A DNA stretch of 60,522 nucleotides, filler included. It is 5 parts of 5 records of this genome, joined end to end, with 100 filler letters (N's around TTAATTAATTAA, not from the genome) between each part and the next. Parts side by side here need not be neighbours in the genome. Positions count along the whole stretch, not along the records: positions 43,029 to 53,484 come from SRR31156797_5652; 4 more parts are not named here. One strand, given 5' to 3'. Both the position numbers and the translations under genes were made by a program. Numbering within the stretch: position 1 is the first letter of the stretch; every line of letters starts with the position of its first letter. Under the pieces are notes generated by a model. That model had not been told where the DNA came from. It ran no database searches and was given only the letters and a program-made list of their open reading frames with translations. Below are positions 7,571 to 60,521 of the stretch, piece after piece.

Positions 7571-7670
7571 NNNNNNNNNNNNNNNNNNNNNNNNNNNNNN
7601 NNNNNNNNNNNNNNTTAATTAATTAANNNNNNNNNNNNNNNNNNNNNNNNNNNNNNNNNNNNNNNNNNNN
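7571..7670. other. Artificial contig spacer
   Basis: N44-TTAATTAATTAA-N44 (stops in all six frames). Confidence 0.99.
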
Positions 7671-36464: not shown

Positions 36465-36564
36465 NNNNNNNNNNNNNNNNNNNNNNNNNNNNNNNNNNNN
36501 NNNNNNNNTTAATTAATTAANNNNNNNNNNNNNNNNNNNNNNNNNNNNNNNNNNNNNNNNNNNN
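36465..36564. other. Artificial contig spacer
   Basis: N44-TTAATTAATTAA-N44. Confidence 0.99.
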
Positions 36565-42928: not shown

Positions 42929-43028
42929 NNNNNNNNNNNNNNNNNNNNNNNNNNNNNNNNNNNNNNNNNNNNTTAATTAATTAANNNNNNNNNNNNNNNN
43001 NNNNNNNNNNNNNNNNNNNNNNNNNNNN
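42929..43028. other. Artificial contig spacer
   Basis: N44-TTAATTAATTAA-N44. Confidence 0.99.
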
Positions 43029-44515
43029 TTTCCGCCATCGATGAAGCCGATGACGTTACCGACCAACTGGCGCATCTTCTTCGACTGGTCAGCCAGCTCA
43101 CTTGCTGCACTGGCTGATTCTTCGGTTGAGGCAGCAGTGTTCTGAACCGAGCGGTCCAGCGTTGAGATAGCATCGTTGATCTGGCTGACGCCTTGTGCCT
43201 GCTCGTTGCCAGCCACGGCAATCTGGCCGATGAGTTCGTTGACCTGAGTATTCGACTCTCGGATTCCGTCGAGGTACTGGGCGACATCATTGACGATTTC
43301 GACGCCGCTTTGAGAATTGCGGACTGATTCCTCGATCATCTCACTGGTACCACGAGCCGCTTCAGCACTTCGCTGGGCAAGAGCGCGAACTTCTTCAGCA
43401 ACCACGGCAAAGCCTTTACCCGCTTCACCTGCACGTGCAGCTTCAACAGCGGCGTTCAGAGCCAGCAGGTTGGTCTGGAAGGCGATTTCATCAATGACCT
43501 TGATGATCTTCGCGGTTTCGTCGGATGAGTTCTGAATCTTGTTGATGGCATCGGTCATGCGAGTCATGGCTTCGGCGCCAGCCTGGACGGCCTGGTCAGC
43601 ATCAGATGCAGACTTACGTGCCTGCTCGGCATTTGACGCATTCTGCTGGGTCATGCCGGACATTTCTTCCAGGGAGCTTCCGGCCTCTTCCAGGCCTGCT
43701 GCCTGATCCGCAGCGACTTGGGCAAGCTGGTCGGAGTTCTGCGCCATCTGATCGGAGGCGGTCGACACCTGGTCGATACTCTCAGCCATCTGCGTGGACA
43801 ATGTCTTGATCGGACGAATGATCCCCCTGACAATCCACATGGAGACTGCAATACCCAGGATCGCCATTAAGCCGAAGCCCGCCAGTTTGTACGCCATGTA
43901 CGCTTTCTGATCGTGTGCGACGGTTGCCACCAGGGCTGCTTTTTCTTCTTCGACGTTGTCGATGTAGACCCCGCAGCCGATCATGATGTCGGTACCCGGA
44001 ATCAGGGCTGCATAGCTCAGCTTCGGCTGAAGACCCTTACCAGGCTTCTCCCAGTGGTATCCCACGTACCCGCCGCCAGCCTGTGCGGCCGCGACGAGAT
44101 CCTTGATGACGTAGACGCCTTTCTTATCCTGGAATTTGGAATAGTCGGCACCATTCTTCGATTTGTTCGGAGGATTGTTCACACGGATGCAGTTGGAATC
44201 ATACGTGAACACGTACCCCGACTTGTCATCAAAGAACCGAAGAGGATCCGTGTATTCAACAATGATCTTCTTCTTTTCTTCCAGATCGGTAACTCCTTCG
44301 AGCTCTTTGTTCAAGAGACCGATCGCCAGTTCGACAGACGTCTTGAGCGTCTGCTTACTGCCGTCCAGGATCGCTTCGCCGAACTTCGGATAGATGACTT
44401 CATCGGTTACCTTGCTATCCAGGTAAACATTGAAGAATTGCAGTCCGCCAGCAAAGACGATCATCAGGCAAGGAATGACGAGAATCTTTCCGCGTACTCC
44501 CAATTTCTTAAACAT
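43029..44515 (-). CDS. Methyl-accepting chemotaxis protein with sCache_2 sensor (last codons cut at the contig end)
   Basis: TM-Cache (GYVF, YHWEKP, KLSY, GCGVY)-[23 protein letters not shown]. Confidence 0.95.
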
Positions 44516-44588
44516 GTGATGACTCCCTGTTCAATAAGAAACTGTCCGCCCCGATCTATTACTCACAAGTCCCTGATACCCTTTTTAG

Positions 44589-44596
44589 GTATCGGT
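44589..44596 (-). promoter_or_regulatory. Possible sigma28 -10 element
   Basis: ACCGATAC about 74 bp upstream of MCP1; similar GTCGATAC (46446-46453) about 67 bp upstream of MCP2. Confidence 0.35.
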
Positions 44597-44831
44597 ATCC
44601 CTTCCAATGACATCAAGAAAATAGCACTCAAGAAGAAAAGTTATTTCCCCTTAAGGGTGATAACCCAATACAAAAAAAGAGCATTTAGATTTCCAACCAC
44701 AGAGAAGTGGTATTCTTTGAGAAATCAATATGACGAAAGGGATTATAGGACTCTCAAAAGTGAAATGTATTTACTTTGACCGAGTATATCAACACATGTT
44801 TGTTCTTATACTTTAGACAGTATAACTGAAA

Positions 44832-44861
44832 CAGGCTCCGCATGTTGCCACACGGAGCCTG
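44832..44861 (-). terminator. Intrinsic terminator after MCP2
   Basis: CAGGCTCCG / CGGAGCCTG 9-bp stem. Confidence 0.7.
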
Positions 44862-44885
44862 CTAAAAGTCGTTATCTGTTCTCTT

Positions 44886-46379
44886 TTACTTCTTTCCACC
44901 CTGAATGAACTGTGCCACATTTCCAATCAGATCACGAATCTTTCCTGACTGGTCTGCGAGTTCACAGGCGGCACTGGCCGATTCCTCTGTTGAGGCTGCG
45001 GTGCTCTGCACGGAACGGTCCAACGTAACGATCGCCTGGTTGATCTGTGATACGCCCTGCGCCTGTTCGTTACCGGCTACTGCGATCTGACTGATCAATT
45101 CATTCACCTGTGAGTTCGAATCACGAATACCACCCAGATACCGTGCGACATCATTCACGATATCCACACCATTCTTTGAGTTGGTCACCGATTCTTCGAT
45201 CATCTCGCTGGTTCCACGAGCTGCTTCAGCACTACGCTGAGCCAGTGCACGGACTTCCTCTGCAACAACGGCAAATCCTTTTCCAGCTTCGCCTGCGCGA
45301 GCTGCTTCGACAGCCGCATTGAGTGCGAGCAGGTTCGTCTGGAATGCGATTTCGTCAATCACTTTAATGATCTTCGCGGTCTCGTCTGAGGATTGCTGTA
45401 TTTTATTGATCGCCTCTGTCATGCGACTCATTGCCTCTTCACCGGCATGAACCGCCTGATCTGCTTCCTGTGCGGAAACTCGAGCCTGTTCAGCGTTTTC
45501 AGCACTCTGCTGGGTCATGCTGGACATTTCTTCCAGGGAACTTCCAGCTTCCTGAAGTCCAGCCGCCTGGTCCGATGCCACCTGTGCAAGCTGATCGGAA
45601 TTCATGGCCATCTGATCCGAAGCGGTCGCGACCTGGTCGATGCTCTGCTGCATTTCGGAGGTCATTCTCACGATCGGCCTGATGATGCCGGATACGATCC
45701 AGAGAGAAAAGGCGATGCCGACGATGGCAAGCAGGCCGAATCCAGCCGCTTTGTATTTCAAGTAACGATTGCGATCCTTCGTTGCCGCAACGATCATCGC
45801 ATTTTTTTCATCTTCCACGTTATCGATATACACGCCGCACCCGATCATGATTTCTGTACCGGGTATTGTCGAAGCGTAACTCATTTTGGGTTGAACGCCC
45901 TTGCCAGGCTTTTCCCAGTAATATTCGACAAATCCTCCGCCGTTCTGAGCAGCCGTAATCAGATCCTTGATCAGGTAGTTGCCTTTTTTATCCTGGAATT
46001 TCAGATAATTAGAACCATTTTTTGATTTATTCGGCGGGTTATTGATGCGTGTCCCGTCGTATGCGTAGGTGAATACGTATCCTGATTTGTCATCAAAGAA
46101 TCGAAGCGGATCCGTGTACTCAACGATGATCTTCTTTTTTTCTTCCGGATCGGTGACCCCTTCCAGTTCCTTGTTCAAAAGACCGATCGCCAGCTCGACA
46201 GACGTCTTGAGCGTCTGCTTGCTGCCATCGAGAATCGCCTCTCCGAACTTCGGATATACGACGTCCTCGGTCACCTTGTTATCCAGATACACATTGAAAA
46301 ACTGAAGACCACCGGCAAAGACGAGCATCAGACACGGAATGACCAGAATCTTTCCCCGTACCCCGAATTTCCTGAACAT
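44886..46379 (-). CDS. Paralogous sCache_2 methyl-accepting chemotaxis protein
   Basis: Collinear with MCP1 from [10 protein letters not shown] (start 46379, AAGGGAG RBS). Confidence 0.95.
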
Positions 46380-46617
46380 GGTTAACTCCCTTTCTAGAAA
46401 TTCCAGAACCCAAACTACGGTACTTGCCCCATACTTCTGCCTAGGGTATCGACCCGATTCAGGACCCAATTCACTATTCGTTCAGTTGTTTTGCCCGTAA
46501 GTACTCATAACCAAAGTCATCAATTGTCACTTAACAGAGAATACAGATTTCCAGCCTCCAATCGCATTCTTGTTTCACAAGCGACCGAAACTATCGGACG
46601 TTGGATGTTCCCAGCAT

Positions 46618-46656
46618 AAAAAAAGGCGCGAAAGGAAAAATACCCTTTCGCGCCTT
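46618..46656 (-). terminator. Intrinsic terminator after ackA
   Basis: AAGGCGCGAAAGG / CCTTTCGCGCCTT stem with a minus-strand T-run. Confidence 0.85.
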
Positions 46657-46685
46657 GTGAATGTCTCGAAAACGAAGCGTCTCGT

Positions 46686-47876
46686 TTACTTGATCAGCTT
46701 CTCGGTATCCATCGCGATCATCAGTTCCTCGTTGGTCGGGATAACCCAGATCGGAATCTTCGACGACGGGGTGGACAGGCAGATCGGCTCTTTCGCCTTG
46801 AAGTTGTCGTTCTTTGCGTAATCCAGCTCGATACCCAGCGGTTCCAGGCCCTTCGATACCATTTCGCGGATGATGAAGGATTTTTCGCCAACACCACCGG
46901 TGTAGCAGATCCCATCGCAGGTTCCCAGTTCTGCCAGGAAAGCACCCAGGTACTTCTTGATGCGATGTGCGTAGATATCCAGAGCGAGTTTTGCACGTTC
47001 GTGACCATCGACGGCTGCATCTTCGACGTCACGCATATCGTTGGACAGACCGGAAATGCCCTTCACACCACTCTTCTTTTCGAGCGAGGCACGGACTTCA
47101 TCAACGTTCATGCCGAGCGAGATCATGTGGAAAATGATCGCCGGGTCGATGTCACCCGATCGCGTACCCATGACGAGTCCTTCCAGCGGGGTCAGGCCCA
47201 TCGTCTGGTCGATGGCTTTACCGCCCTTGATGCAGGTCATGCTGCAGCCGTTGCCCAGGTGAAGCGTAATCAGGTTCGGAGCGGGCTTGCCCAGAAGTTC
47301 GGCCGCCTGCATGCAGATGTAGCGGTGGCTGGTTCCGTGGAAGCCGTAACGGCGAACGCGGTGTTTTTCGTACCATTCGTAGGGTACGGTGTACATGTAC
47401 GCCTCGGGAGGCATGGTCTGAAAGAATGCGGTATCGAACACGCCGACCTGCGGCTTACCGGGCAGAGCGGCCATCGTCGCACGGATTCCGCCGAGATTGG
47501 CAGGATTGTGAAGCGGAGCCAGGCTTACACAATCTTCAACGACGCTGAGAACTTCCTCATTGAGAACGACTGATTCGACGAACTTTTCGGCACCATGAAC
47601 GACACGGTGACCAACACCATCGATTTCAGAAGCATCCTTGATTGGCGGGGGACTGCCTGCGGAGGTCATCAGGTCCAGAATCTGGCGGATTCCCGCTTCG
47701 TAATCCAGAATCGGATCATTCCGGACGATCTTTTCACCATTGATTTTGTGGGTCGTGGACGAATCCTGCGCCCCAACGCGATCGATAATACCCTCGGCTA
47801 AGGAATCCTTGATGTCCGTATCAAATAACTGGTACTTGATTGACGAACTCCCACAGTTGATGACAAGAATCTTCAT
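46686..47876 (-). CDS. ackA: Acetate kinase
   Basis: INCGSSSIK, GHRVVHG, APLHNP, RYGFHGTSH, HLGNG and PTNEE motifs. Confidence 0.96.
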   Translation of the reverse strand: MKILVINCGSSSIKYQLFDTDIKDSLAEGIIDRVGAQDSSTTHKINGEKIVRNDPILDYEAGIRQILDLMTSAGSPPPIKDASEIDGVGHRVVHGAEKFVESVVLNEEVLSVVEDCVSLAPLHNPANLGGIRATMAALPGKPQVGVFDTAFFQTMPPEAYMYTVPYEWYEKHRVRRYGFHGTSHRYICMQAAELLGKPAPNLITLHLGNGCSMTCIKGGKAIDQTMGLTPLEGLVMGTRSGDIDPAIIFHMISLGMNVDEVRASLEKKSGVKGISGLSNDMRDVEDAAVDGHERAKLALDIYAHRIKKYLGAFLAELGTCDGICYTGGVGEKSFIIREMVSKGLEPLGIELDYAKNDNFKAKEPICLSTPSSKIPIWVIPTNEELMIAMDTEKLIK

Positions 47877-48118
47877 GGCGTCCCTCGTGAAAATGTGACT
47901 ATTCTTCGTAATAACGCATATTCGCGTTTTCCGACCGGCCTGCCTGCTTTTTCAGCAGCCCCCCTGCCACTCGAAATCCGCGGCGAAGGTACACTATCAC
48001 GCTCCATTTCACTTTGCAATATATTCAAAATTACAATAATTGGTCTGAGTTACAATTGCATAAATGGCGGCTTGAGGAATCTGGAATCAGGTCAATACGC
48101 GGAAAAGAGTGTCCGCCA

Positions 48119-49033
48119 CTATTGTTCAATTGTTTCGACTCCGGGTTGGAGTTCCATAAACACTTTGTGGTGAACCCCCTGCCAGCCTGTCGGAATCCTC
48201 TCCAGCATCCTATCTTCATAGATGCTTGCAATCCCGATCCCGTCCAGATTCATATATCCGACGTAGCAATGGCAGGTTTCCATCTGGCATCTGCTTTCGC
48301 TCAGAACTGTGGAAAGATCCGAATCGTACAGGTTTCCGAGAATACGAGCATCAAACCAGCATCGCCGGATAGTGCCCTGTCCATCCACTGCGATCGCTGA
48401 CTTTCCGGTCCGGCACACCCGTCCGGCACTTCGATAGTAAGGCATATTCAAGCGAAACCATGGATCTATCCGTTCGATCCGTCCAATCTGCTTTTCATCG
48501 TAGTAGTCTGCCTCCCGCTTGTACGCATTCACCCACATGTACACATCCGGAGACAGACGATCCCGGAGCTGCTCGATGTTATCCAGGTCTTCAATGATTC
48601 CCACGCTTCCGACACTGTACCTCACTCCCAGATGATCCAATTCATTGCACTGCCGGAGGAAGACCTCCCGTGTCACCTGGGAAGGATGATAGGTACACCA
48701 CAGTCCAACCCTGTCGAGATCACATGCTACCAGCCAGTCGAGCCTGCAGGAGAGATTCGTCTGGGCGACTACACGATTGGCATTCGTCGAACAGCTAATC
48801 TTTTGAATGGCCTGATGATACCAGGTATGAACCAGGGCTTCACCGCGTGGAACAAAGAACACCGACATCCGCTCCGGTGACTCAACAACCCATTTCACAA
48901 AACGTTCCAGAGCCCTCTGATCCTCATCCAAGGTCGCGACTGAATCCTCCCGAGACGCAAACGGGCAGTACCTGCATCGATAATTGCAGCTCGACAACGG
49001 ACCTCGGTACTGGACGGTCAGATCTAATGCCAC
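48119..49033 (-). CDS. STM4011-family radical SAM protein
   Basis: YRGPLSSCNYRCRYCPFA; C-terminal CRTG..RC..C...CHCYVGY (SPASM/twitch-like); probable GTG start at 49033 overlapping the upstream stop. Confidence 0.85.
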   Translation of the reverse strand: MALDLTVQYRGPLSSCNYRCRYCPFASREDSVATLDEDQRALERFVKWVVESPERMSVFFVPRGEALVHTWYHQAIQKISCSTNANRVVAQTNLSCRLDWLVACDLDRVGLWCTYHPSQVTREVFLRQCNELDHLGVRYSVGSVGIIEDLDNIEQLRDRLSPDVYMWVNAYKREADYYDEKQIGRIERIDPWFRLNMPYYRSAGRVCRTGKSAIAVDGQGTIRRCWFDARILGNLYDSDLSTVLSESRCQMETCHCYVGYMNLDGIGIASIYEDRMLERIPTGWQGVHHKVFMELQPGVETIEQ

Positions 49034-50349
49034 TTGTGCCCCCTGGCCAACGCCTGTACACGATCCGAATACAACCACGGACCGATTGAATCTGAACGCT
49101 CCAGCCCTGTCTCGGTCAGTCGGATCGTTTCATTCGAGTATTCAGCCAGTCCCAGGTCCATCAATTCCTGAAGCTGAGGGCAGTCCTCGAGTGGCTTGCT
49201 GTTGAATTCGGTTTCATACATTCTGCAATCCAGGCCCGGCAATCGAAGGATCGACTTGATGATGAAACGACGAATCTGTTCCTGGCGATCCAGACGGAAT
49301 CCATGGGACAAAACACCGAATGCGTCCTCCCCGGTCTGGATGTACTCTTCGAGAATCGCCTGTATGCTTTCGTGACCGACTGCGTATTTCGATGCATAAT
49401 GCAATGTACGGGTATAGGAGCGTGCTCCGCACCCAAGGCCAACCATTCCATCCCGCTGGCAACTGTATTCATGATCCGTGTACTTTCCAGGGCTGCCTTT
49501 CCTGAATAATCTCATCGACACCTGGGTGAAACCCTGCTCAAGCAGCAGATCTCGACCGGCCCGGTATGCTGAAAGCCTCTGGTCATCCCAGTCTCTCTGA
49601 CGTTTCCAGAGCCCGGTTTTCGGGCGGACGTATAGTGGGTAGAGATAAATTTCGTCTGCCCCGGCTTCGATTGCCAGACGCACGGATTGAATCCAGCTTT
49701 CAATCGTCTGACCGCCCCCTCCGTAGATCAGGTCGATGTTCATGAAAGGGAAACCCGCAGACCGGATGGTTTCCAGTGCGGTATCCACAACCGAACGACT
49801 CTGTCGTCTCCCCAGATCTTCAGCCTCCCGGTCACAGAATGTTTGAATTCCCAGGCTGACACGGTGGATACCCTTTTCTTTCAGCAACCCGATACGTTCA
49901 GGCGTTGCCGTCGAAGGGGATGTCTCCACCGAACCGGCGATCTGCCGGGAATTGATTCCCATGTTCTGCAGGATGGAGAAGAGTCGCTCGAGCTGCTTTT
50001 CGACAAGGTAGGTAGGAGTCCCACCGCCAATCGCAAACTGTGCAAACGAAACGTCTCCCAAAGCAACCATGGTAGCATGTGCCTGGCGTTCGACGCTGGC
50101 CAGGTATGCTTTCACGGTATCATCCGACGGCCTGGCAGTACTCAGTAAATTGCAGTACCCGCAACGGTTTTCGCAGAATGGAATATGGACATATCCGAAC
50201 AAAGCGTCTTTCTTTTCCTGCTGCCATGCCTCTTCTAATGACACAACAGGCGTCAACGGGCGATACGCGGTTTTATGTGGATATGCGTAGGCATATCCCT
50301 CGTAACGACTGGCATCGAGCAAAGATGAGGATACAGGATAGCAACTCAT
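49024..50349 (-). CDS. STM4012-family HemN-like radical SAM protein
   Basis: YAYPHKTAYR, YVHIPFCENRCGYC, GGGTPT, NIDLIYG and GLGCGARSYT motifs; TAATG overlap at 50349. Confidence 0.87.
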   Translation of the reverse strand: MSCYPVSSSLLDASRYEGYAYAYPHKTAYRPLTPVVSLEEAWQQEKKDALFGYVHIPFCENRCGYCNLLSTARPSDDTVKAYLASVERQAHATMVALGDVSFAQFAIGGGTPTYLVEKQLERLFSILQNMGINSRQIAGSVETSPSTATPERIGLLKEKGIHRVSLGIQTFCDREAEDLGRRQSRSVVDTALETIRSAGFPFMNIDLIYGGGGQTIESWIQSVRLAIEAGADEIYLYPLYVRPKTGLWKRQRDWDDQRLSAYRAGRDLLLEQGFTQVSMRLFRKGSPGKYTDHEYSCQRDGMVGLGCGARSYTRTLHYASKYAVGHESIQAILEEYIQTGEDAFGVLSHGFRLDRQEQIRRFIIKSILRLPGLDCRMYETEFNSKPLEDCPQLQELMDLGLAEYSNETIRLTETGLERSDSIGPWLYSDRVQALARGHKWH

Positions 50350-51158
50350 TACTGCCCTCCTCTCCTCGGCAATACGAATTCCGCATAGGGGACATTCAGC
50401 ACAACCGGGTGACTCACACGATGCCCGACATATCCTCCTTCGCCATAACACGTCCCATGGTCAGAGCAGATCACACACAGGCAATCTCCCCGCTGCTGCA
50501 ACACCCGGAACAAGGTATCCAGATGTGTATCGACATACGCCAATGCATTGGCCTGGGTTTGCGGGGAATCGTCGCTGGCATCGTCCGTAAAAATGCAGTT
50601 CGGTTGATGAAGGGCCGAAATATTGACGAAGAGAAACACACGCTGCTGGTCAAGCTGCTGCAATCGCTGAACGGCACATTCAACCTGCTTTTCCGTTGAG
50701 TCCGGGCTGGTCACCCCAATCTCTTGCGACCAGTAGCTTTCCTGGAACAATCCGGGGAGAACGCACGAGAGAGGGTTCCGCTTGCTGAAAAAACCGGTTC
50801 CGCCAATGCAGATCGTCCGGTATCCCCGATCTGCCATTCCGCTGACGATGTCTGTTGAATCGAACGTCGCGGTGTTCGGCGTAGTGGTCTCACTGCCTTT
50901 GAACTCTGCGGCAAAAAGCCTGGGATGGTTTCCGGGCTCGACAGGAGTTGGTAGAAAACCGCCGAAAAACGCATGGTGGGCCGCATACGTGAATGTTGAG
51001 GGTGAATGACGCAGCTCCCACTTTCCACCCGGCACTACCCGTTCGAGATTTGGCGTCAGCCCGGATTCCATCGCCTGCTGTGCGACATCATATCGAAGCG
51101 TATCCAGGGTGACGAAAAGAATGTCATGTGAACCGATCATATCACGAGCAGGCAGCAT
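50349..51158 (-). CDS. STM4013/SEN3800-family hydrolase (alkaline phosphatase/sulfatase superfamily)
   Basis: VTLDTLRYD, HSPSTFTYAAH, ALHQP and SDHG..YGE.G..GH motifs; probable start 51158 with GGAGG. Confidence 0.85.
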   Translation of the reverse strand: MLPARDMIGSHDILFVTLDTLRYDVAQQAMESGLTPNLERVVPGGKWELRHSPSTFTYAAHHAFFGGFLPTPVEPGNHPRLFAAEFKGSETTTPNTATFDSTDIVSGMADRGYRTICIGGTGFFSKRNPLSCVLPGLFQESYWSQEIGVTSPDSTEKQVECAVQRLQQLDQQRVFLFVNISALHQPNCIFTDDASDDSPQTQANALAYVDTHLDTLFRVLQQRGDCLCVICSDHGTCYGEGGYVGHRVSHPVVLNVPYAEFVLPRRGGQ

Positions 51159-51768
51159 GAGACACCTCCAATACCTCATCAAGGTGTTCGATCACGAAGT
51201 CTACTTCGCAAGGCAAACAATCCATCGGCCTTCCATGTGAAAGCCAGCATGTGTGCAACCCTGCACGAGATGCCCCCAGCATGTCGTCTACCGGATCATC
51301 TCCAACGAACAGAACATCACTGCCCGGAAGATCCAGTTGCTGCAATGCATATTCGAAAATCCGCACATCGGGTTTCCGGAATCCCACGGCTGACGAGATA
51401 ACAACCGGAAATACATTTTCATCTCCCAGACAGCGTCTGAGCTTTTCCCGTTGTGCACGCTCCCGGCCATTCGTAATCACGCCAGCCCGCATGCGATGGG
51501 TGATTTCCCGAACCACTCTTCGTGATTCGAAGCAGGACTCAACGCATTGAGCGATTCCAAATGAATACTCTTTTCCAGGGACATCAACACCGGAAATGGA
51601 GTCGAGGAAAGCAACGATGGCTTCCCAGCCCTCTTCCGCAACCTGGCGAATCGTGGAGTCATCCGGTTTCAGACCCGCAGTACGGGTAACGTCCTGCAGG
51701 TACCGGACCCGCGCGAACACGATATCGCACAACGTGTTATCCAGATCAAACAACACAGCCTTGAACAA
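51142..51768 (-). CDS. HAD-superfamily hydrolase
   Basis: FDLDNTL, ITNG, KPD and VGDDPVDD motifs; TTG start; overlaps both neighbours. Confidence 0.9.
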   Translation of the reverse strand: MFKAVLFDLDNTLCDIVFARVRYLQDVTRTAGLKPDDSTIRQVAEEGWEAIVAFLDSISGVDVPGKEYSFGIAQCVESCFESRRVVREITHRMRAGVITNGRERAQREKLRRCLGDENVFPVVISSAVGFRKPDVRIFEYALQQLDLPGSDVLFVGDDPVDDMLGASRAGLHTCWLSHGRPMDCLPCEVDFVIEHLDEVLEVSHAACS

Positions 51769-52972
51769 GATTTACCTCGACATTCCTGCCAGACAGTATG
51801 GCTACCTGTAATTCGTAAGGATCCAAATCCGCAAACCGACAGTCGCGCAAGAAATCTCCAAATGCGTTCGCTTCCAGCACCCAGTGTTTGCGTCCACATG
51901 AGCTGATCGCAAGATCAACAGCAACATGAAGACTGCGGCTGAACAAGCTGCCCACACATCTGCATGTTTGAAGCACAGCATTCCAGTTTTCTTCGTCGAC
52001 CCGATGCCGAACACTTTCAAAGCCTGCCCTGCGATTCCCGAGGTGCAGATTGGTAATGGCTGTATCACTCAAGCGGACGACCGTATGGGCGGGCTGCCCG
52101 GAAACGATCAGGATTCGCAGATCGAATCGTTTGTCTCCGGTTCCCGCCTTGGGTACCCATCGCTCGACTTGAACACCCTGCAGGCATAATGCATCGATGA
52201 TCGCTGCAACTTCGATATGATCCCGAATGCGGCGAATGCGGCGGGAGTTGAAGAGCTGGAGCGAGCCGCTGACAACTTCCGCCTCCACCGTCGTCCATGC
52301 CTGGATTCGGCCGCGACTGGTTTCCAAAGCAACAATCCCGGATGCCGCTGAACCATGTCGTAGTTTTACGAATACACGAAAACAACGACGCTGTTTCATC
52401 AAGGAGATCAGCTCTTCAAAGCAGCCGGGTTGTCCAAGGCTCAGTGGAACGGGAATGCCCGCTGACGCCAGGCGTTTGTGGCAGACAACCTTGTCGAACA
52501 ATGTGCGGATGTCATCCGGATGGCTGGTGAAACATGCTCCGTCCCCTCCTCCGCATGCTTGCTCGACATCGTTGAGGACTTCGCAGAAGCCGTGATACCA
52601 CTGACGCGTATTGAGGATAATTCCCTTCCGATGGCTGAGTTGATCCACAGCAATGGGAGAAACGCCTGCCCCGCTTTCGGCCGATACCCGGGGATAGCCA
52701 CGCTTGAGAATTCCCCGGAGAATATCCATCGAGCGTCCCGGACTCTCGATGCGTATCAGCGATCCCGGCTCTACCCGGGTTTTCAGCATCGCAGGTTCCG
52801 CCAGGAGTTCCAGGTATGAAATCACCTCTGGTTCCGGAAGTCCAAACGCCTTGGACGCCTTGCGATAGAATCCAGTCCTTGGATCATCAGGATCCGCAAT
52901 CAAAGCGAGAGGAGTATCCGGGCAGCAGCCCCAGGCACTACTCTGAAACCGCGATATACCGGAATGATTCAC
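51746..52972 (-). CDS. STM4014-family ATP-grasp-like protein (start uncertain)
   Basis: IRIESPG, FDK, FVKLRHGSAASG, VERWVPK, FDLRI, ITNLHLG and LEANAFGD motifs. Confidence 0.82.
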   Translation of the reverse strand: MNHSGISRFQSSAWGCCPDTPLALIADPDDPRTGFYRKASKAFGLPEPEVISYLELLAEPAMLKTRVEPGSLIRIESPGRSMDILRGILKRGYPRVSAESGAGVSPIAVDQLSHRKGIILNTRQWYHGFCEVLNDVEQACGGGDGACFTSHPDDIRTLFDKVVCHKRLASAGIPVPLSLGQPGCFEELISLMKQRRCFRVFVKLRHGSAASGIVALETSRGRIQAWTTVEAEVVSGSLQLFNSRRIRRIRDHIEVAAIIDALCLQGVQVERWVPKAGTGDKRFDLRILIVSGQPAHTVVRLSDTAITNLHLGNRRAGFESVRHRVDEENWNAVLQTCRCVGSLFSRSLHVAVDLAISSCGRKHWVLEANAFGDFLRDCRFADLDPYELQVAILSGRNVEVNLVQGCVV

Positions 52973-53484
52973 CGTCGTACTCATCAGGTTGTTCCTGCCC
53001 ACTCAAGTCAACGTCTATTCCAAGATTCCGCATGTTCTCAAGCATTGGATCCGTCATGAAATGATGATGAAGATCCAGCCTGGTCAGATTGGGAATCCGC
53101 GATGAAGCCAACAGTGCCTCGGCCCCCTCATCCCCAAGGTTCCCCAGAGACAGGTCGAGTTCCTTGATGCGATCGAGTATCGGTGCATCTGCAACAACCT
53201 TCGCAACGGCATCGGCTTCGCAACTGTTCCGCAAGCCGAGAACCTTCAGGTTCGGAAAAAGGGTCCCGGAAAGAATTGGTTGTAGATCATCGACCGAACT
53301 TTCCCACCCGTAACCATCATCACCCAGCCATAACTCGAGATGCTCAAGCTGCGGCAGATCCGCCTCGCAGACTTCCTTCAGTACATTGGCAGGTAGTCCG
53401 CCCGTTTCGATAATCAGTGTTTTCAAACGATCGGACTTCAGGGTTCCCAGCGAAAGATTCTCCATACCCCGAACGCGAAACATT
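52938..53484 (-). CDS. STM4015-family LRR protein (5'-truncated)
   Basis: LEHLELWLG, FPNLKVLGLRN, LDLSLGNL and LDLHHHF repeats; terminal RYIAVSE. Confidence 0.85.
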
Positions 53485-53584
53485 NNNNNNNNNNNNNNNN
53501 NNNNNNNNNNNNNNNNNNNNNNNNNNNNTTAATTAATTAANNNNNNNNNNNNNNNNNNNNNNNNNNNNNNNNNNNNNNNNNNNN
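53485..53584. other. Artificial contig spacer
   Basis: N44-TTAATTAATTAA-N44. Confidence 0.99.
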
Positions 53585-55465
53585 GCAGCGGGATGGCCGG
53601 ATTTCAAAAACAGCAAAACCATTCTTGTCTGGGGTCATAATCCCAAAGCCACGATGAATGCGTTCAACTGGCAGATAAAAGCCGCACGGAAGAATGGGGC
53701 CAGGGTCATTGTGGTTGATCCCCGGTTGACGGATTCTGCCGCCAGGGCGGATATCTGGCTCCAGGTCAAACCGGGGACCGACGGAGCCCTGGCCCTGGGC
53801 ATGATTCATCTTATGCTGAAGCATGAACGCTATGATGACGGCTTTGTACGAAACTGGACCAATGCCCCTTTACTGGTAAGAAACGATACCGGAGATTTGC
53901 TCCGGGGCCCCCTGGGTGAGTCTTCCGGGGAGAACCGGGATATGCTCTACGTGGTGAATGGGGTGAGCAAAACGCCTGTCCCCTGGACACCCGGATCAAA
54001 ATTGGATTGCGTCCCCTGCCTAGAGTGGAGCGGGGAGATTAAACTGGCCGACAAAAAGCGTGTTGGATGTAAAACGGTATTTTCACTGCTCAAAGAAGCG
54101 GTGGCAAGGTATACGCCTGAATTTGTCCGGGCCCATACATCCGTTTCCGGCGAGCTTCTGGAAAAAACGGTCCGCATGATGGCGGATAACGGACCATCAT
54201 GCTGGTTTTCATTTAACGGTGTGGAACAAAACCTGAATGCCACCCAGACCAACCGGGCTTTATGTACGTTTTACGCACTTACCGGGGACTATGACAAAAA
54301 AGGCGGCAATGCGGTTCATTCCCCTGTCCCCCCCCTGGCCTTTCCTTTTGGTTTTGAGTTTGTAACGCCGGAAATGTTCCAAAAAAATATTGCCTTATCC
54401 GCCCATCCGTTAGGACCGGCCGGGACGATTATGTCCGTTCCCCACTACCTGATATGCAAGGCCATTGAAGAGGCGAACCCCTATCCGGTAAAAGGACTCA
54501 TCGTGTTTGGGGCAAACACGGTTTCAGCCCATCCGGACAGCAGAATGACGGCAAACGCGTTTAAGAAACTGGAGTTTCACGTTCATATTGACCTCACCCT
54601 TAATCCCACTGCGGCATTGGCCGATATTGTCCTGCCGTCAACAACTTTCTGGGAGACAGGCCGTATCGGATATCCCCTTGAATTTCAGGAAAATAAATGG
54701 GTATTGCAGTGGCGTGAACCCGCGGCCGCGCCACGGGGTGAAAGCAAAGACGAGTTGTGGATCATTCTCGAGCTTGCCAAACGCCTGGGGGTCTCTGAAA
54801 AATTCTGGGGCGGAAACCTTGATACCGCGTTTGAAAGCATGTTGGAACCACTAAACATCAAGCTGGAAGATTTAAAAAGCGCTGACGGCGGAATCTTTAT
54901 CCAAAGGCCCTTTGAGTATCAAAAATACAAGAAGAACGGCTTCGGGAATATGTCCGGCCGTGTGGAACTGTTCTCCCAGCTTTTAAAGGATATCGGGCAG
55001 GCCCCCATTCCGGAATGGAAAAACCCCTATGAGATTTTCCGTAAGGCCGGAATCGATACATCCGAATATCCGTTTATTCTTATCAATTCAAAACTGCGCG
55101 GGTTTTGCCAGTCCCAGCACAGGGCCATCCCATCCCTGAGGAAACAACATCCCCATCCGTTTTTGGAAATCAATCGAAAAAAGGCAAAAGAGATGGGCAT
55201 CGTCCAGGGAGAGCCCGTCATTCTGGAAACCGTGCATGGCAACATAACGCTGGCGGCCCGGCTGAGCGACGGTATTGCCCCGGATGTCGTCTGCACCCAG
55301 CACGGGTGGTGGGAGGCCTGCCCGGAACTGGGCCTGCCCGGCCATGACATTTACTCATCCAAGGGCCCGAATGTAAACCTTTTGTACAAGAACGATTTTG
55401 TGGATCCCATCAGCGGCTCCGTTCATATGCGGGGATTTCCCTGCAATATCAAAAGACATGGATGA
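53585..55465 (+). CDS. Molybdopterin (bis-MGD) oxidoreductase catalytic subunit (5'-truncated)
   Basis: Frame open from the contig edge (DFKNSKTILVWGHNP); VVDPR, PGTDGALA and ADIVLP motifs; C-terminal dinucleotide-binding domain. Confidence 0.9.
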   Translation, partial: AAGWPDFKNSKTILVWGHNPKATMNAFNWQIKAARKNGARVIVVDPRLTDSAARADIWLQVKPGTDGALALGMIHLMLKHERYDDGFVRNWTNAPLLVRNDTGDLLRGPLGESSGENRDMLYVVNGVSKTPVPWTPGSKLDCVPCLEWSGEIKLADKKRVGCKTVFSLLKEAVARYTPEFVRAHTSVSGELLEKTVRMMADNGPSCWFSFNGVEQNLNATQTNRALCTFYALTGDYDKKGGNAVHSPVPPLAFPFGFEFVTPEMFQKNIALSAHPLGPAGTIMSVPHYLICKAIEEANPYPVKGLIVFGANTVSAHPDSRMTANAFKKLEFHVHIDLTLNPTAALADIVLPSTTFWETGRIGYPLEFQENKWVLQWREPAAAPRGESKDELWIILELAKRLGVSEKFWGGNLDTAFESMLEPLNIKLEDLKSADGGIFIQRPFEYQKYKKNGFGNMSGRVELFSQLLKDIGQAPIPEWKNPYEIFRKAGIDTSEYPFILINSKLRGFCQSQHRAIPSLRKQHPHPFLEINRKKAKEMGIVQGEPVILETVHGNITLAARLSDGIAPDVVCTQHGWWEACPELGLPGHDIYSSKGPNVNLLYKNDFVDPISGSVHMRGFPCNIKRHG

Positions 55466-55490: not shown

Positions 55491-56519
55491 CTACTTCTCA
55501 TATCTTTTAATCAAGCTGCATGGGGTATACTCGATTTCCATGTCGCGTCTTTCTCCCTTGAACGCCAGTAGTCCACCCTTTGAAATAAGACTGGATTTGA
55601 TAATAAGTTTCCTGAGGGATTGAAAATGTCTGAGTTCCATCAATCCGGCATCGGTTACCCAGGTGCTCGACAGGTGAAGTTCTCTGAGCTTTTTGAGCTT
55701 CCGGAGATATGGGAAGCCCACACCGGTAACCATGTTGTTGTTCAAGGACAGGGAACGAAGATCTCCCAGTCCCGCCAAAAAACGGAAACCATCGTCCGTC
55801 ACCATCGTCTGGGAGAGGTTCAACCGCTCAAGCCGGGACAGGTTTTCAAGATACCCTGTCCCTTCGTCGGTGATGGCGGTCCTCGCCAGTTTAAGGGAAC
55901 GGATATCGGGAAATGCCTTTAGCACCTTCAAATCCGGATCTTCCATGCCGGTGTTGGACAGTTGAAGTTCCTGGATCGGAATGCCGGTATCCAGGAACTT
56001 CAGGTCGCTGCCCGTGATTTTCGTACTGTTCAATAATAACCTGTTGAGTGAATGAAATCCCTTGATTCCGGCAAGCCCCTTGGCGGTGATATCCGAATTC
56101 GAAAGGCTTAGCGTCTTCATCGATGTAAGGTTTTTTATAAAAACCAATAGGGAGTCCGTGTTCTTCATGTGCGTAAACCGCAATTCCTGAATATCGTTGG
56201 GCCGAAGGCATGCGAGTCCTTCCAGCCCCCTGCCGGACGTACTTTTTGCGCCGGAATTGAGTAATACATCGTATCCCCGGGGGATCTCCACGATCCCCCG
56301 GGCAGTGTAATCGCCTCCTGACCAAGGCTCGGAATCGTTTGCCGTTGATTGCCTAATTCGAAGGGTTCCCAAATTATGGCCGCAGGGAAAGTGGATTTCT
56401 TTTTTCCCTGGGAGTATCCTGCCGGATACTGCGGACGCGACCGCTCCGGATCGGGACATAAGGAAGAATGGCGCAGACAGAATGGATATGATGGCTTTCC
56501 GCCGGCTAAGGTTTACCAT
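55491..56519 (-). CDS. Leucine-rich-repeat protein with twin-arginine signal
   Basis: MVNLSRRKAIISIL...AVASA; about 9 LxxLxLxxTxITDxG 24-aa repeats; AGGAG before ATG 56519. Confidence 0.85.
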   Translation of the reverse strand: MVNLSRRKAIISILSAPFFLMSRSGAVASAVSGRILPGKKEIHFPCGHNLGTLRIRQSTANDSEPWSGGDYTARGIVEIPRGYDVLLNSGAKSTSGRGLEGLACLRPNDIQELRFTHMKNTDSLLVFIKNLTSMKTLSLSNSDITAKGLAGIKGFHSLNRLLLNSTKITGSDLKFLDTGIPIQELQLSNTGMEDPDLKVLKAFPDIRSLKLARTAITDEGTGYLENLSRLERLNLSQTMVTDDGFRFLAGLGDLRSLSLNNNMVTGVGFPYLRKLKKLRELHLSSTWVTDAGLMELRHFQSLRKLIIKSSLISKGGLLAFKGERRDMEIEYTPCSLIKRYEK

Positions 56520-56585
56520 GAAGGGACTCCTCATTTATACGGTCTGTTTATTAAGTGTTCAAACTCAGTTTGCGGCAGTCCGGTT

Positions 56586-59500
56586 CTATCCGGATTCCGG
56601 CGGCTGTGGCGCCTGGCCGGTTCTGCGTTCGAGAGCAATATTTATCTTTACGATCGCCTGGCGCGCCATTTTGCGAACCTTCCTGTTTTCATGCCGGGTA
56701 CAGGCCTCCAGCCGTCCCAGCCCCTCTTTTGCCTCTGGGCCAATGGAACCGAGTGCCCTTATGACAGCTTTTCGTGCCGCCATATCCCCCCGGTCATAAA
56801 ACTTTAAAAGCGAAGGAATAGCTGGGGCGGCATTTTCTTTCAATGACGCAATGACACTGACAATGTCCGTTCCCATATCCTTGTCCCCGGCTTCAAGGAC
56901 CTGTACCAAAGGCCGGAGCGCCGAGGGAGGCAGCGGCGTCACCTTGATCGCCCTTAACGCCTCGATTCTAACCATGCGCTCCCCATCGAACAGGGCGTCC
57001 AGAAGCAAATTGACCGGAAGGTCGATCTGCTTCCTGTAGTATTTCAGGAGTTTAACAGACAGCCACCGGTTGTACCATGATGCATCCTTGATCGTTTCCC
57101 AAAGGGGCTGCTCGAACACATTGGCAATGGTCTGAAGCGATATCACTTTCGAGAGCGCTTCCATGTCCAAATCCTTTATCCAGAACCGCTGGATGCCGTT
57201 TTCCCCGGCAAGCATTTTTGATATGGAGAACAACCTTTCCAAACCAATGCGGCGAACTACCGGCCGGGGACTCTTCAGGTCTGCGAGCAGCCCCTCCGTC
57301 ACGCTAGTGTATAAGGCGGCAAGCGCCCTTTTTTCCTTCCGGCGTTCGGCTTCCTTCTCACGAAGTTCGGCTTCCTTTTCCCACGTTCCACTCAAGATCT
57401 GCCGCCAGGCCTTCGCCGCTGGGAATTGTTTGTTCCCGATCTCGCCGGCCTGGAAGACAATGGCGTTCACGGCCGCGCCCCCGGCGGAAGGTTCAGTTTC
57501 AGACGAACGGCCGTAGGGCAAAAGGTTCGCCTGCCAGTCAAGGGGCGCACTCTCTGAAGGGATTGCCGTGTCGGCGTCAACCCTGTAGCTCCCCTTGGCC
57601 ATGTTAAACCATACGCGCCCACCGGAACTCTGAATGTCGCTGACGGAATTCCTGCCGAAGTCGAACACGCTCAACGCATCCCCATCGATGCGAACTGCCA
57701 CACAAGAAGAATAGTTTTCCTTTTTAACACGCATCCATATTGATCCGCCGGCCCCATGGAGGCTTTCAACCCGGACGTTTTCCGCCGGTAAAATTTCGAC
57801 ACCCGAATTCCGGATATGATATGCGGGGCCGGCATGCCCCTCCTCCGTGCGGGTCGAGAACCAAACCTGGTTTCCGAAGCCGTAGATCTCTGAAACCAAG
57901 GCCTCCCTGGTCGGATAAGGAACGGTGCCACCGTCTTCCAGACGGTAGGCCGGGCCGGCGATGTCCCTGTATCCGTCGGCAGAGCGGGAAACGGTCTTCA
58001 TCCAGGTTTTTCCACCGATATCCGTAATGTCCCACGCCAGATCGCCGGGTGCCGGAAACAGCTCAGCCTTGTTATCCCGGATCCTGAAGAGAAGGTCGCG
58101 GTTCAAACCGTCGACCAGAAACCACAGGGCGTCCCCATGCTTTTCGAACCGGCCGCCCGGCAAATCACACCCTTCTATTTTAATGAATCGATCCCCCTCC
58201 TGGATGTACCCACCATGGTTTGTCGATAGGTACGCCCGGCCATCTATTTCCTGCACTTGTTTGACGATGATTTCATGGTCGAGGGCCGGAACGGCGTGAT
58301 AGCCTCCCGAACACCGGTAAAGAGGGCCGTTGGAGGCAAATAATTCATTGTCTTCCCGGGTTAAAAACCAAACGTGCCCGCCCGCTTTCTTAATTTCAAC
58401 GACATTCATGTACCCTGAGATTCTAACCGCTTTATCCTGCTCGACCCGGAAGGCGCCATCCTCTGTGGCCAGCCACAAGCGTTCGTCGATTTCGAAAATA
58501 TCGTTGACCCGTAAATCAGGGGGCGTCAACCGGGTGTAAGTCTCTCCCTCTGCGCAGTAAGCGCCATATTCCGTGGCCAGCCATGCTTTGTTTCCTTTCA
58601 GAAGGATGCGGTACACATTGGTATCTTTCGAAGGAAAGGGGATACAACGTTTCCCTATAATCCGGTAGGCCCTCCCGGACCCCAGGAACCCGCGTCTGAA
58701 TAACCAGAACTGGCCGGGTCCCTGCACGATTTCCGTGGTATTGAATCCAATGTCCGTTTCGCCGTCCGGATAGGGAATGGCGGTGCCGTTTTCAATGCGG
58801 TAGGCAGGGGGGCACGCCCCCGGTCGGACCAACCACTTTTCTCCGTCCACCAGCAGCTCTTTCCAGTCTTTGAATTCCCCGGGCTTGAGGGTGATCCCGG
58901 TTTCCGGATAGCGGACAGCGGGGGGAGAGAACAAAGTGCAGGGGAGACCCCTCAAGGCCACCCAGTCGATCTGGCTGTTCCTCTCAATGGTATCCACGTG
59001 AGTGGCATCGGTTTTCCAGACATTCACGGTCTGATCGTCAGAAATGGTCAGGAGGTGTTCATGATCTTTTGAAAAGCTCCCATAATGGACGAACTGGTTG
59101 CCATGTTTGAGTGTCTTGACATTGACGGGGCCCGTATCTAAAGCCTGCCAGAGTTGGACGCGCCCTTTTTCGCCCATGGTGAGAAAATATGGATTCCTCA
59201 GGGCGTGTGAAAAAACGGCATTGGACACTCCCCCGGAGGAGAGTTCCTTTGCAACGAGCTCCTCGCTTTCATCGAGGGTCAAAAAGAAGGCCTTGCCCGA
59301 TTCCAGAACGACAACGGCATATTTGCCGGAGGCATCTGTAACCGACCGGATAAGGGGATCGCCGGCCCATTCGCCCATGAAAGTGAGGGATTTTCCGGTT
59401 TTCGGGGCCACCAGCCATACGCCGCCGGTGCCGTCCCCTCCGATGATATAATCACCCAAATATCCTGCCACCGTATGTACCGGAGCCTTTGTAAAACGGC

Positions 59501-60521
59501 TGAAACGAAACTCCCCCCGGCATGATCCGTCCAGGCCGTATACTTCCAGATTGAATTGGCGTACGATGAAAATTTCTTTTCCGGAAGTGCTGAACACGCC
59601 GGTCTCTAATCGCCTCGAGGCCCTTCCGGAACAGCCGTTCAACTCAATTGTCTCCAGGGATTCGTTGTTCAGCAAATAGGCTTTCCCCGGGACGGAACTC
59701 CCATCTTTGGACCGCCTTGTTAGGGAAAGGGCATATTTCCCGTCCGGACTGAGCTTGCTGTATAAACCCAACCGGCGGAATCTGGGGGCAAGGTAAGCGG
59801 CTCCTTTCCCGGAAAGTTCCATTTCAATTTTATTGTTTTCCTTGTGAAGAATAAGCGTTTTGTAGGCGCTTCGCAAGGCCAGTTCCGCGCTTTCCGACTG
59901 CTGTCGGCGTACCGCGTCCGCGCTTGTCAACGGACAGAGCCGTTTGGCTTCCAGGGCATCGAAAAAGGATTGAGCCGGGTTACGGTAGACATTTTCAAAA
60001 GCGGTTGCGATCATCCGCTGAAATCTCGCCTGAATTCCAGCTTGCCTGTCCCGCCGGGAGGCGACCACAGAGTACACGGTAAGGGAGACAAGTAAGAGAA
60101 TTACGGAAAGAACGGTCATTACGAGCTTCTTCGTTTTTCCCATCTGAGCAACCTCTTCGCTGATTATATTATCCCTCGATTTTCCATGGAGGGTCGCTGC
60201 GAAGGTGGCCACCTCCTCCTTGAACCCACTATTCTTATTTGACAGATCCTTTTCCGAACGGAATTTTCGCAGATCGACATATTTGGGCGCCGCGCAATAC
60301 TGGCCTTTGAAGACTTCCGGAAGAGCGCTTGTCGTTTGCCAATCGAAATCTTCCGCTTCCCCCGGCGAAATATCTGAGGAACCTGCGCTATCCGGCCAAT
60401 GGATTCGACCATCCGTCAAAACCAGGATCAAATTCTCCTTAGACCGGTTTTTTAACCAATACTCCGTTTCCTTCCGGACCCATTTGGAATCAGCAGCCTC
60501 GGGAGAAGCCAGTAAAATGAA
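56586..60521 (-). CDS. TIR domain-TM-WD40/beta-propeller-HEAT repeat protein (5'-truncated)
   Basis: Frame open to the window end: FILLASPEAADSKWVRKETEYWL (TIR betaC-alphaC); one TM; WD-like LLTISDDQTVNVW; C-terminal HEAT repeats (ARKAVIRALGSIG). Confidence 0.82.
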   Translation of the reverse strand, partial: FILLASPEAADSKWVRKETEYWLKNRSKENLILVLTDGRIHWPDSAGSSDISPGEAEDFDWQTTSALPEVFKGQYCAAPKYVDLRKFRSEKDLSNKNSGFKEEVATFAATLHGKSRDNIISEEVAQMGKTKKLVMTVLSVILLLVSLTVYSVVASRRDRQAGIQARFQRMIATAFENVYRNPAQSFFDALEAKRLCPLTSADAVRRQQSESAELALRSAYKTLILHKENNKIEMELSGKGAAYLAPRFRRLGLYSKLSPDGKYALSLTRRSKDGSSVPGKAYLLNNESLETIELNGCSGRASRRLETGVFSTSGKEIFIVRQFNLEVYGLDGSCRGEFRFSRFTKAPVHTVAGYLGDYIIGGDGTGGVWLVAPKTGKSLTFMGEWAGDPLIRSVTDASGKYAVVVLESGKAFFLTLDESEELVAKELSSGGVSNAVFSHALRNPYFLTMGEKGRVQLWQALDTGPVNVKTLKHGNQFVHYGSFSKDHEHLLTISDDQTVNVWKTDATHVDTIERNSQIDWVALRGLPCTLFSPPAVRYPETGITLKPGEFKDWKELLVDGEKWLVRPGACPPAYRIENGTAIPYPDGETDIGFNTTEIVQGPGQFWLFRRGFLGSGRAYRIIGKRCIPFPSKDTNVYRILLKGNKAWLATEYGAYCAEGETYTRLTPPDLRVNDIFEIDERLWLATEDGAFRVEQDKAVRISGYMNVVEIKKAGGHVWFLTREDNELFASNGPLYRCSGGYHAVPALDHEIIVKQVQEIDGRAYLSTNHGGYIQEGDRFIKIEGCDLPGGRFEKHGDALWFLVDGLNRDLLFRIRDNKAELFPAPGDLAWDITDIGGKTWMKTVSRSADGYRDIAGPAYRLEDGGTVPYPTREALVSEIYGFGNQVWFSTRTEEGHAGPAYHIRNSGVEILPAENVRVESLHGAGGSIWMRVKKENYSSCVAVRIDGDALSVFDFGRNSVSDIQSSGGRVWFNMAKGSYRVDADTAIPSESAPLDWQANLLPYGRSSETEPSAGGAAVNAIVFQAGEIGNKQFPAAKAWRQILSGTWEKEAELREKEAERRKEKRALAALYTSVTEGLLADLKSPRPVVRRIGLERLFSISKMLAGENGIQRFWIKDLDMEALSKVISLQTIANVFEQPLWETIKDASWYNRWLSVKLLKYYRKQIDLPVNLLLDALFDGERMVRIEALRAIKVTPLPPSALRPLVQVLEAGDKDMGTDIVSVIASLKENAAPAIPSLLKFYDRGDMAARKAVIRALGSIGPEAKEGLGRLEACTRHENRKVRKMARQAIVKINIALERRTGQAPQPPESG

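Follow-up and report, generated by a model that had tools for sequence, protein, structure and literature searches.

The stretch of DNA analysed here (the window, 60,522 nucleotides in length) consists of five contigs joined by spacers, and the subject of this report is a cassette of six genes on the minus strand, at the end of the contig that occupies positions 43029-53484. The preliminary description had proposed six co-oriented genes whose neighbours all overlap, and six minus-strand open reading frames (ORFs) were found accordingly. From the upstream end, these encode an STM4015-family leucine-rich repeat (LRR) protein, of which only the C-terminal 181 amino acids are present (52938-53483; NF038076 positions 104-290, E 4e-68); an STM4014-family ATP-grasp ligase of 412 amino acids that resembles RimK, LysX and MptN (51746-52984; NF038074); a HAD-IA phosphatase, which is an optional member of the cassette (51142-51768; TIGR01549); a soluble STM4013-family enzyme of the alkaline phosphatase (AlkP) superfamily with Thr57 at the nucleophile position and a two-metal ligand set (50349-51158; NF038075); an STM4012-family HemN-like radical S-adenosylmethionine (SAM) enzyme, class C-like and predicted to perform one-carbon transfer (49024-50349; NF006067); and an STM4011-family radical SAM enzyme with a twitch-like set of auxiliary cysteines (48119-49033; NF038073). 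The LRR protein ends in the heptapeptide R-Y-I-A-V-S-E just before the stop codon (52941-52961), and the conservation of this tail marks it as the putative acceptor site of the cassette enzymes. At the most plausible start codons the overlaps from STM4015 to STM4011 are 47, 23, 17, 1 and 10 nt, the start of the ligase having been placed from an upstream AGGA.

Family assignments were checked using the NCBIfam hidden Markov models (HMMs), and the expected match to the STM4011-STM4015 families was borne out: STM4014 (339.5 bits against a cut-off of 175), STM4013 (404.6 against 250), STM4012 (552.9 against 380) and STM4011 (358.3 against 200) all exceeded their cut-offs, as did the HAD-IA protein with TIGR01549 (64 bits against 23.3). 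The partial STM4015 gene scored 229.5 bits, under the cut-off of 275, because the fragment covers no more than positions 104-290 of the profile. A Logan contig from a source-like run extends 271 bases past position 53484, and the LRR gene is therefore cut by the assembly, not broken. The catalytic motifs were intact, as had been described, including CxxxCxxC in both radical SAM proteins, five further cysteines in STM4011, the D-x-R, T-N and E-x-N motifs of the ligase, and the AlkP metal ligands. With the gene order 4015-4014-4013-4012-4011 on a single strand and the HAD gene inserted after 4014, the locus is a real and intact member of the catalogued STM4011-STM4015 cassette. Promoter and terminator scans gave matches at chance level only (6 versus 4.2 and 7 versus 4.7, respectively).

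Relatives were collected by a genome scan, in which at least 584 relatives were confirmed among 600 rows and the best 80 loci were analysed, and by a plasmid-database search that returned 13 records, six of which were examined (Salmonella, Deinococcus, Streptomyces, Methylobacterium, Paenibacillus and Bacteroides). The cassette is spread across Actinomycetes, Cyanobacteria, Planctomycetes, Chloroflexi, Deinococcus, Firmicutes, Bacteroides and Salmonella, and about 3% of complete E. coli genomes carry it. Salmonella and E. coli (STM4010-STM4015) share with the window the same five families, their order, translational coupling and a HAD companion; there, however, a HAD-IIB protein closes the cassette, whereas in the window, as in five other loci, a HAD-IA gene lies between STM4014 and STM4013, and the window tail is of the type R-Y-x-A-V-x-E, unlike those of Salmonella and E. 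coli. HAD-IA was found within the cassette in 6 of the 80 loci. HAD-IIB also lies nearby in three other loci, and in Bacteroides finegoldii (L006:11965-13530) it is fused to STM4011; the latter locus encodes a WGR-LRR protein, holds only a fragment of STM4013 and has no STM4012.

All five families were found together in 60 of the 80 loci. The ligase was single-copy in every locus, and STM4013, STM4012 and STM4011 were single-copy in 66, 62 and 63, respectively, and otherwise absent, often at contig ends. The LRR gene was present in 77 loci and reached two to five copies in 27. Where the cassette is split, the LRR and ligase genes remain adjacent in six loci (L009, L025, L047, L063, L077 and L079) and the ligase stands alone in two; STM4011 and STM4015 were both present somewhere in each of the five split genomes tested. 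In one cyanobacterial family of 121 genomes, the ligase was found in 13, all with the LRR gene, which occurred in 14; the LRR copies of the single genome with LRR only are a degenerate gene and a fragment.

The STM4015 proteins are built of ribonuclease-inhibitor-like repeats, an acidic linker (median net of 4 acidic residues in 12) and a tail ending in Glu. A homologue of the window protein with a known structure, PDB 2RA8 (E 2e-49), is an uncharacterised structural-genomics entry. The terminal residue was Glu in 130 of 137 copies, several of the seven exceptions appearing frameshifted, with Arg at position -7 in 127 and, at position -6, Tyr in 116 and Phe in 11. Among 141 distant representatives (the best 150 at the 50% identity level minus nine giant repeat proteins) Glu was terminal in 137, although this set leans somewhat toward tail carriers since the search profile included the tail. 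The invariance of E181 in the alignment was not counted, being circular (its rows were picked to end in Glu). None of the 141 proteins carried a C-terminal domain fusion, the longest read-through being two residues. N-terminal or internal additions are common, with WGR on 12 of the 39 longest proteins, BRCT, DM9 and long LRR arrays on others and, as judged by eye, HEAT-like N-terminal ends on cyanobacterial copies. In the enzymes the final residue was not conserved (most frequent residue in 16 of 87 STM4014, 13 of 72 STM4013 and 17 of 70 STM4011). The pattern R[YFW]xxxxE-stop was present on 126 of 6681 ORFs, where about 1.5 were expected by chance, and these comprised 125 STM4015 genes and one frameshifted STM4015. 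A narrower DNA pattern applied to five whole genomes gave 15 matches versus 11 in the reversed control; the five matches that closed long ORFs were all STM4015, two of them far from the cassette.

Several features around the LRR genes were noted separately. One STM4015 protein (P0249) has a BRCT domain inside its LRR region with the tail kept, and in one Planctomycete a DNA ligase-WGR gene (L030:11173-12471) directly follows the ATP-grasp ligase gene; taken together, these suggest a possible connection with DNA breaks. The LRR paralogues of Nostocales are interspersed with WD40 and ankyrin proteins (L034:7816-9021, L045:6470-7675, L121:2387-3646 and L034:13421-14533), and the WD40 protein of L121, at least, shares the HEAT-like N-terminal domain of those paralogues; none of these interleaved proteins has the tail pattern at its end.

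The ligase relatives matched RimK (56 of 69), MptN (47) and LysX (24), weakly and, where shown, under the family cut-offs; the window ligase scored 18 bits with the RimK model TIGR00768 against a cut-off of 143.4, which places it outside that family. RimK, MptN and LysX, the nearest named families, act on terminal carboxylates. The ATP-grasp catalytic set (D-x-R, T-N, D and E-x-N) is present, and D-x-R and T-N align with LysX (1uc8) at a non-significant E. The invariance of E-x-N across the 80 loci is partly circular, as the pattern was used to find the loci, and it holds in a 97-sequence alignment too. Residues R15, R269, R283, K144, K186 and K258 are kept in nearly all ligase relatives. According to the available part of PMC10375531, RimK, LysX and tubulin tyrosine ligase hold an acidic C-terminus by way of the D-x-R arginine or an Arg belt, which the conserved Arg/Lys set of the cassette ligase resembles. 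A further residue, R298, is invariant in 69 other ligases and is replaced by Ala in those of Salmonella, E. coli and Bacteroides (L001, L139 and L006). These are the lineages whose LRR tails lack Arg at -7, and the two losses were possibly one evolutionary event.

STM4012 has a HemN-like fold with an intact cluster motif, CxxxCxxC being present in 63 of 63 relatives, and its PDB matches were HemN (1e-51) followed by NocN (2e-35). According to the accessible parts of the sources, the HemN motif is CX3CX2CX2C and the HemW motif CXHNX2YW (PMC13495026), and HemN-like class C enzymes mostly spend two SAMs on one-carbon chemistry (PMC10114718). STM4012 was rejected as HemN (138.7 versus 325 bits with TIGR00538, the fourth Cys of the motif being absent) and as HemW (159.6 versus 205.4 bits with TIGR00539, the HemW motif being absent), and it also fell under the HutW cut-off. 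With the class C one-carbon transferases (NosN/NocN, YtkT, C10P and ChuW/HutW) it shares the HemN-like fold, CxxxCxxC and GGGTP; unlike them, it forms a family of its own (NF006067) and has no thiopeptide or heme context. By this analogy a two-SAM one-carbon transfer is predicted for STM4012. STM4011 combines the radical SAM core with five invariant auxiliary cysteines, so that eight cysteines are each conserved in 61 of 61 relatives, and no RRE domain was seen in its predicted model (predicted local distance difference test, pLDDT, 92.5). The closest folds to this model by Z-score include BlsE (16.9), SkfB (15.9), DesII (14.9) and MoaA (14.8), whereas Foldseek places the sulfatase maturase anSME first, an enzyme that ranks only 20th by Z-score. 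Fold matches of this modelled structure do not decide between a peptide and a small-molecule substrate. PDB sequence searches with STM4011 found no significant relative.

In STM4013, residues D19, T57, H61, H184, D233, H234 and H246 are each present in 67 of 67 relatives. The active-site segment reads T-Y-A-A-H (T-W-P-S-H in enterobacteria), with Thr in place of Cys or Ser and His in place of Arg at +4, and T57 aligns with the Thr of the T-F-P-N-H segment of the Xanthomonas nucleotide pyrophosphatase/phosphodiesterase (NPP); this alignment suggests that Thr57 acts as the nucleophile. A Thr at that position together with the Asp/His two-metal set follows the NPP and phosphoethanolamine-transferase pattern. 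The structural model (pLDDT 94) matched choline sulfatase (Z 18.6) and the phosphoethanolamine transferase EptC (Z 18.0), which amounts to a tie. Because STM4013 resembles phosphoethanolamine transferases, a GPI- or Atg8-like link of the tail to phosphatidylethanolamine was considered; it was set low because STM4013 is without a membrane part and because cyanobacteria are not known to contain phosphatidylethanolamine.

The mechanism that we favour, and to which an even chance is given, is that the ligase couples a small and probably phosphorylated amine to the tail Glu as an amide, and that the radical SAM enzymes, the Thr-nucleophile phosphoesterase and the HAD protein then tailor this amine on the protein. 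By likeness to RimK and LysX, STM4014 would form an acyl-phosphate on the tail Glu, at the alpha or gamma carboxylate, and subsequently the amide. The amine partner would probably carry a phosphoester or nucleotide part, because the cassettes almost never lack the Thr-nucleophile AlkP enzyme and because two HAD subfamilies have been recruited, once by fusion. Judging from the chemistry of the respective families, STM4012 may then add a SAM-derived one-carbon unit, STM4011 may perform a radical oxidation, elimination or cross-link, STM4013 may cut or transfer at a phosphodiester, and the HAD protein may remove phosphate. The outcome would be either a permanent modification of the LRR protein or, as with LysW, a carrier that releases a product, and these two are about equally probable; a slight lean toward a retained group comes from the lack of any conserved peptidase or exporter in the neighbourhoods. 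The variable LRR, WGR and BRCT front ends would direct the modified tail to different partners, perhaps nucleic acid.

This mechanism is supported because the Glu tail is fixed against the stop codon and specific to STM4015 while the last residues of the enzymes are unconserved, because the acidic linker pairs with conserved Arg and Lys residues of a ligase whose nearest named models are RimK, MptN and LysX, and because the LRR and ligase genes stay together in split cassettes and co-occur in cyanobacteria. The LRR protein had been proposed as scaffold, substrate or sensor, and the fixed Glu terminus now favours the substrate, or acceptor, over the other two. If the tail Glu is the acceptor, mass spectrometry could reveal the substrate of all of the cassette enzymes, and C-terminal glutamate chemistry of the RimK/LysW type would extend to large receptor-like proteins with radical tailoring. 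A broader proposal, that diversified LRR receptors share a Glu tail bearing a built chemical group which serves as warhead, signal or anchor, and which would be a new protein modification, is put forward tentatively and is more doubtful than probable. The families and the cassette were already catalogued, and the novelty lies in the predicted chemistry.

By comparison with known systems, the cassette probably functions in the manner of a RimK/LysX system for C-terminal glutamate, with tailoring by radical chemistry added. The likeness to RimK/RpsF glutamylation would lie in the broad ATP-grasp group, a predicted C-terminal Glu target on a protein and an Arg-rich site, and the difference is that there is here a dedicated LRR acceptor with radical SAM, AlkP and HAD companions. 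LysX/LysW likewise combines an acidic protein having a fixed terminal Glu with an adjacent ATP-grasp ligase and tailoring enzymes. LysW itself is small, resembles a zinc finger, ends in EDWGE and is served by a kinase, a reductase, an aminotransferase and a releasing peptidase, none of which recurs in the 87 loci, and the carrier here would instead be an LRR protein of at least 300 amino acids with many variants that end in R-Y-x-x-x-x-E. By the tests run, the cassette is outside the RimK, LysW, HemN, HemW, sulfatase-maturase and RiPP (ribosomally synthesised and post-translationally modified peptide) families and the known defence families.

Several observations weigh against the favoured mechanism. 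The similarity of the ligase to RimK and LysX is remote (best E 3e-9), the Pfam models ATPgrasp_ST (53) and YheCD (34) match the ligases as well or better, PDB sequence searches with the ligase found no significant relative, and in one E. coli ligase R269 is replaced by His. Genes for making an amine are not conserved near the cassette, and the partner must therefore come from general metabolism. The best structural match of the STM4011 model is BlsE, which acts on a free nucleoside sugar. Five of 16 cyanobacterial STM4015 ORFs are without the final Glu (two N-terminal halves and three long copies), enterobacterial and Bacteroides tails retain Glu and its register and not the Arg, and a fixed Glu terminus might just as well serve for docking or for degradation. 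The HAD gene is absent from the cassette in most loci. Finally, the 80 loci are rich in Actinomycetes and Nostocales, and locus counts are not independent events.

Among other explanations, the most serious is that the product of the enzymes is a free small molecule resembling a cofactor or nucleoside; the LRR protein would then be a scaffold or regulator, its Glu tail serving only for docking to an enzyme. The small-molecule enzymes BlsE, DesII and MoaA among the STM4011 fold matches, the resemblance of STM4012 to NocN and HemN, the cofactor ligases MptN and CofF among the STM4014 matches, and the fit of AlkP and HAD proteins to nucleotide or sugar-phosphate substrates would all agree with it. 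It is nevertheless judged unlikely, if worth keeping in view, as it leaves unexplained why the tail always closes with Glu, a residue that bears a carboxylate, and never runs past it, why the LRR genes expand up to five copies beside single-copy enzymes, and why LRR and ligase genes stay together in split cassettes; nor was an exporter or conserved precursor gene found in the neighbourhoods. For the natural-product pathway suggested earlier, a secreted product is likewise unsupported, no exporter or peptidase recurring there.

A role in conflict or phage defence, with LRR paralogues as sensors of invader molecules or DNA breaks, would be compatible with the favoured mechanism and is rather improbable. 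It is considered because the LRR paralogues are variable, receptor-like and WGR- or BRCT-bearing and because an accessory gene pair is shared with phages. The distribution is patchy, with the cassette in 158 of 5426 E. coli genomes, 1 of 201 genomes in the phylum of the closest Desulfobacterales metagenome-assembled genome (namely that genome itself) and 13 of the 121 genomes of the cyanobacterial family, and the LRR copies diversify and carry WGR and BRCT fusions. The accessory pair, a small His-rich protein (phrog_27831) and a DUF6745 protein, occurs in phages too and was found within 10 kb in 24 of the 80 loci, across several phyla (e.g. L012:14786-16268 and L021:13822-15300). For the His-rich protein the ESM Atlas returned only unnamed clusters and one DUF6745 fusion, and the literature search found no paper on DUF6745. 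Ternary-system genes (bpX6, and ivWA twice) flank three loci. Against such a role, PADLOC 2.0 gave no informative match for the six proteins, only partial radical SAM matches (E 2e-8 and 1e-3), and a scan of 150 of the 175 flanking or intervening genes gave 20 matches, which were generic folds (kinases, RecQ, ABC, WD40, ankyrin, TatD and WYL) or single nuclease-like genes and included no recurring defence system; these neighbour counts stand without a background rate. All 158 E. coli copies are chromosomal, the one inspected lying between ompL and typA as in Salmonella, and none of 26 pattern matches in IMG/VR was a relative of the cassette. Two matching 'phage' records were rejected, since both are Salmonella sequences in which the matched region bears no viral annotation. 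Of the conflict system suggested earlier, the classical anti-phage form is thus not supported, having no informative PADLOC match, IMG/VR copy or defence-island neighbours, and a broader conflict role is possible.

The free terminal Glu, the variable recognition domains and the expansion of paralogues would also suit tagging of the Pup or ubiquitin type, in which a lysine of an LRR-bound protein would be linked by the ligase to the terminal Glu of the LRR protein. Pup is ligated through its C-terminal Glu; its ligase, however, differs in fold from the ATP-grasp ligases, and such tagging would leave no role for both radical SAM enzymes, AlkP and HAD although five families occur together in 60 of the 80 loci, so that this explanation is quite unlikely. 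It is very unlikely that the LRR tail receives glutamates, or some other amino acid, from the ligase as in RimK-type regulation, with a separate target for the STM4013-4012-4011 block. RimK is the most frequent named match of the ligases (56 of 69), and several Planctomycetes have the cassette split into LRR plus ligase and a three-enzyme block, but both blocks occur in the same genome in five of five split cases and are translationally coupled in most loci.

A RiPP-like route, in which the tail is a core peptide whose Tyr and Glu are cross-linked (as in PQQ, or by a NosN-like methylene ester) and which is then cut off, is highly unlikely. STM4011 resembles the folds of the radical SAM enzymes SkfB, SuiB and PqqE, which likewise are twitch- or SPASM-like enzymes encoded next to a gene whose C-terminal motif is conserved. 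NosN joins an aromatic ring to a Glu carboxylate by a methylene, according to the available part of PMC10114718, and its homologue NocN is the second PDB match of STM4012. However, the aromatic residue is not invariant here, Tyr being replaced by Phe in 11 of 137 tails and by Asn in those of Salmonella and E. coli; the STM4011 model has no RRE domain; and no conserved protease was found. No short RiPP precursor, protease or exporter was present in the 87 loci, in which ORFs under 70 amino acids were not called. Sulfatases that carry formylglycine have the signature C/S-x-P/A-x-R. That STM4011 acts on STM4013 as anSME acts on sulfatases, by oxidising the active-site residue, is extremely unlikely despite the leading Foldseek match to anSME and the sulfatase folds matched by STM4013 (Z 18.6), since STM4013 lacks this signature and has the NPP-like Thr57 and His61 in 67 of 67 relatives, and since anSME is only 20th by Z-score.

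The absence of a published function was upheld: the literature, most subscription papers aside, has the cassette genes only in gene tables, as in the accessible parts of PMC3844500, PMC12413039 and PMC2784778. The five families are thus functionally undescribed despite their wide occurrence, and two of them are uncharacterised radical SAM families. A single phenotype came to light: in the available part of PMC8653844, transposon sequencing of Salmonella calls STM14_4823-4828 required solely at 3% NaCl, and three of these genes are listed from previous gut screens of cattle, pigs and chickens. The listed lengths match those of the STM4010-4015 genes in five of six cases, and the sixth is off by four residues. 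As a function of the cassette this salt call is given low weight, because it is HMM-smoothed, spans the flanking yihPO and ompL, and rests on the condition for which reads were fewest, and because that part of the source holds no single-mutant validation of STM14_4823-4828.

Past the downstream end of the cassette, the same strand of its contig (43029-47876) carries an acetate kinase gene and then two tandem, closely related genes for methyl-accepting chemotaxis-like proteins, none of which recurs beside the cassette in relatives. The spacer at 53485-53584, which contains two N runs of 44 bases and has no strand, ends the contig, so that genes past it are not cassette neighbours; other spacers of N runs lie at 7571-7670, 36465-36564 and 42929-43028. 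The ORFs at 36509-39160, 42977-44515 and 53537-53824 run into spacers and are cut or artefactual. On the next contig, the region 55491-60521 encodes an LRR protein with a Tat-like (twin-arginine translocation) N-terminus, which is not STM4015 and is without the Glu tail, and a long beta-propeller and HEAT-repeat protein whose reading frame is open at the end of the window.

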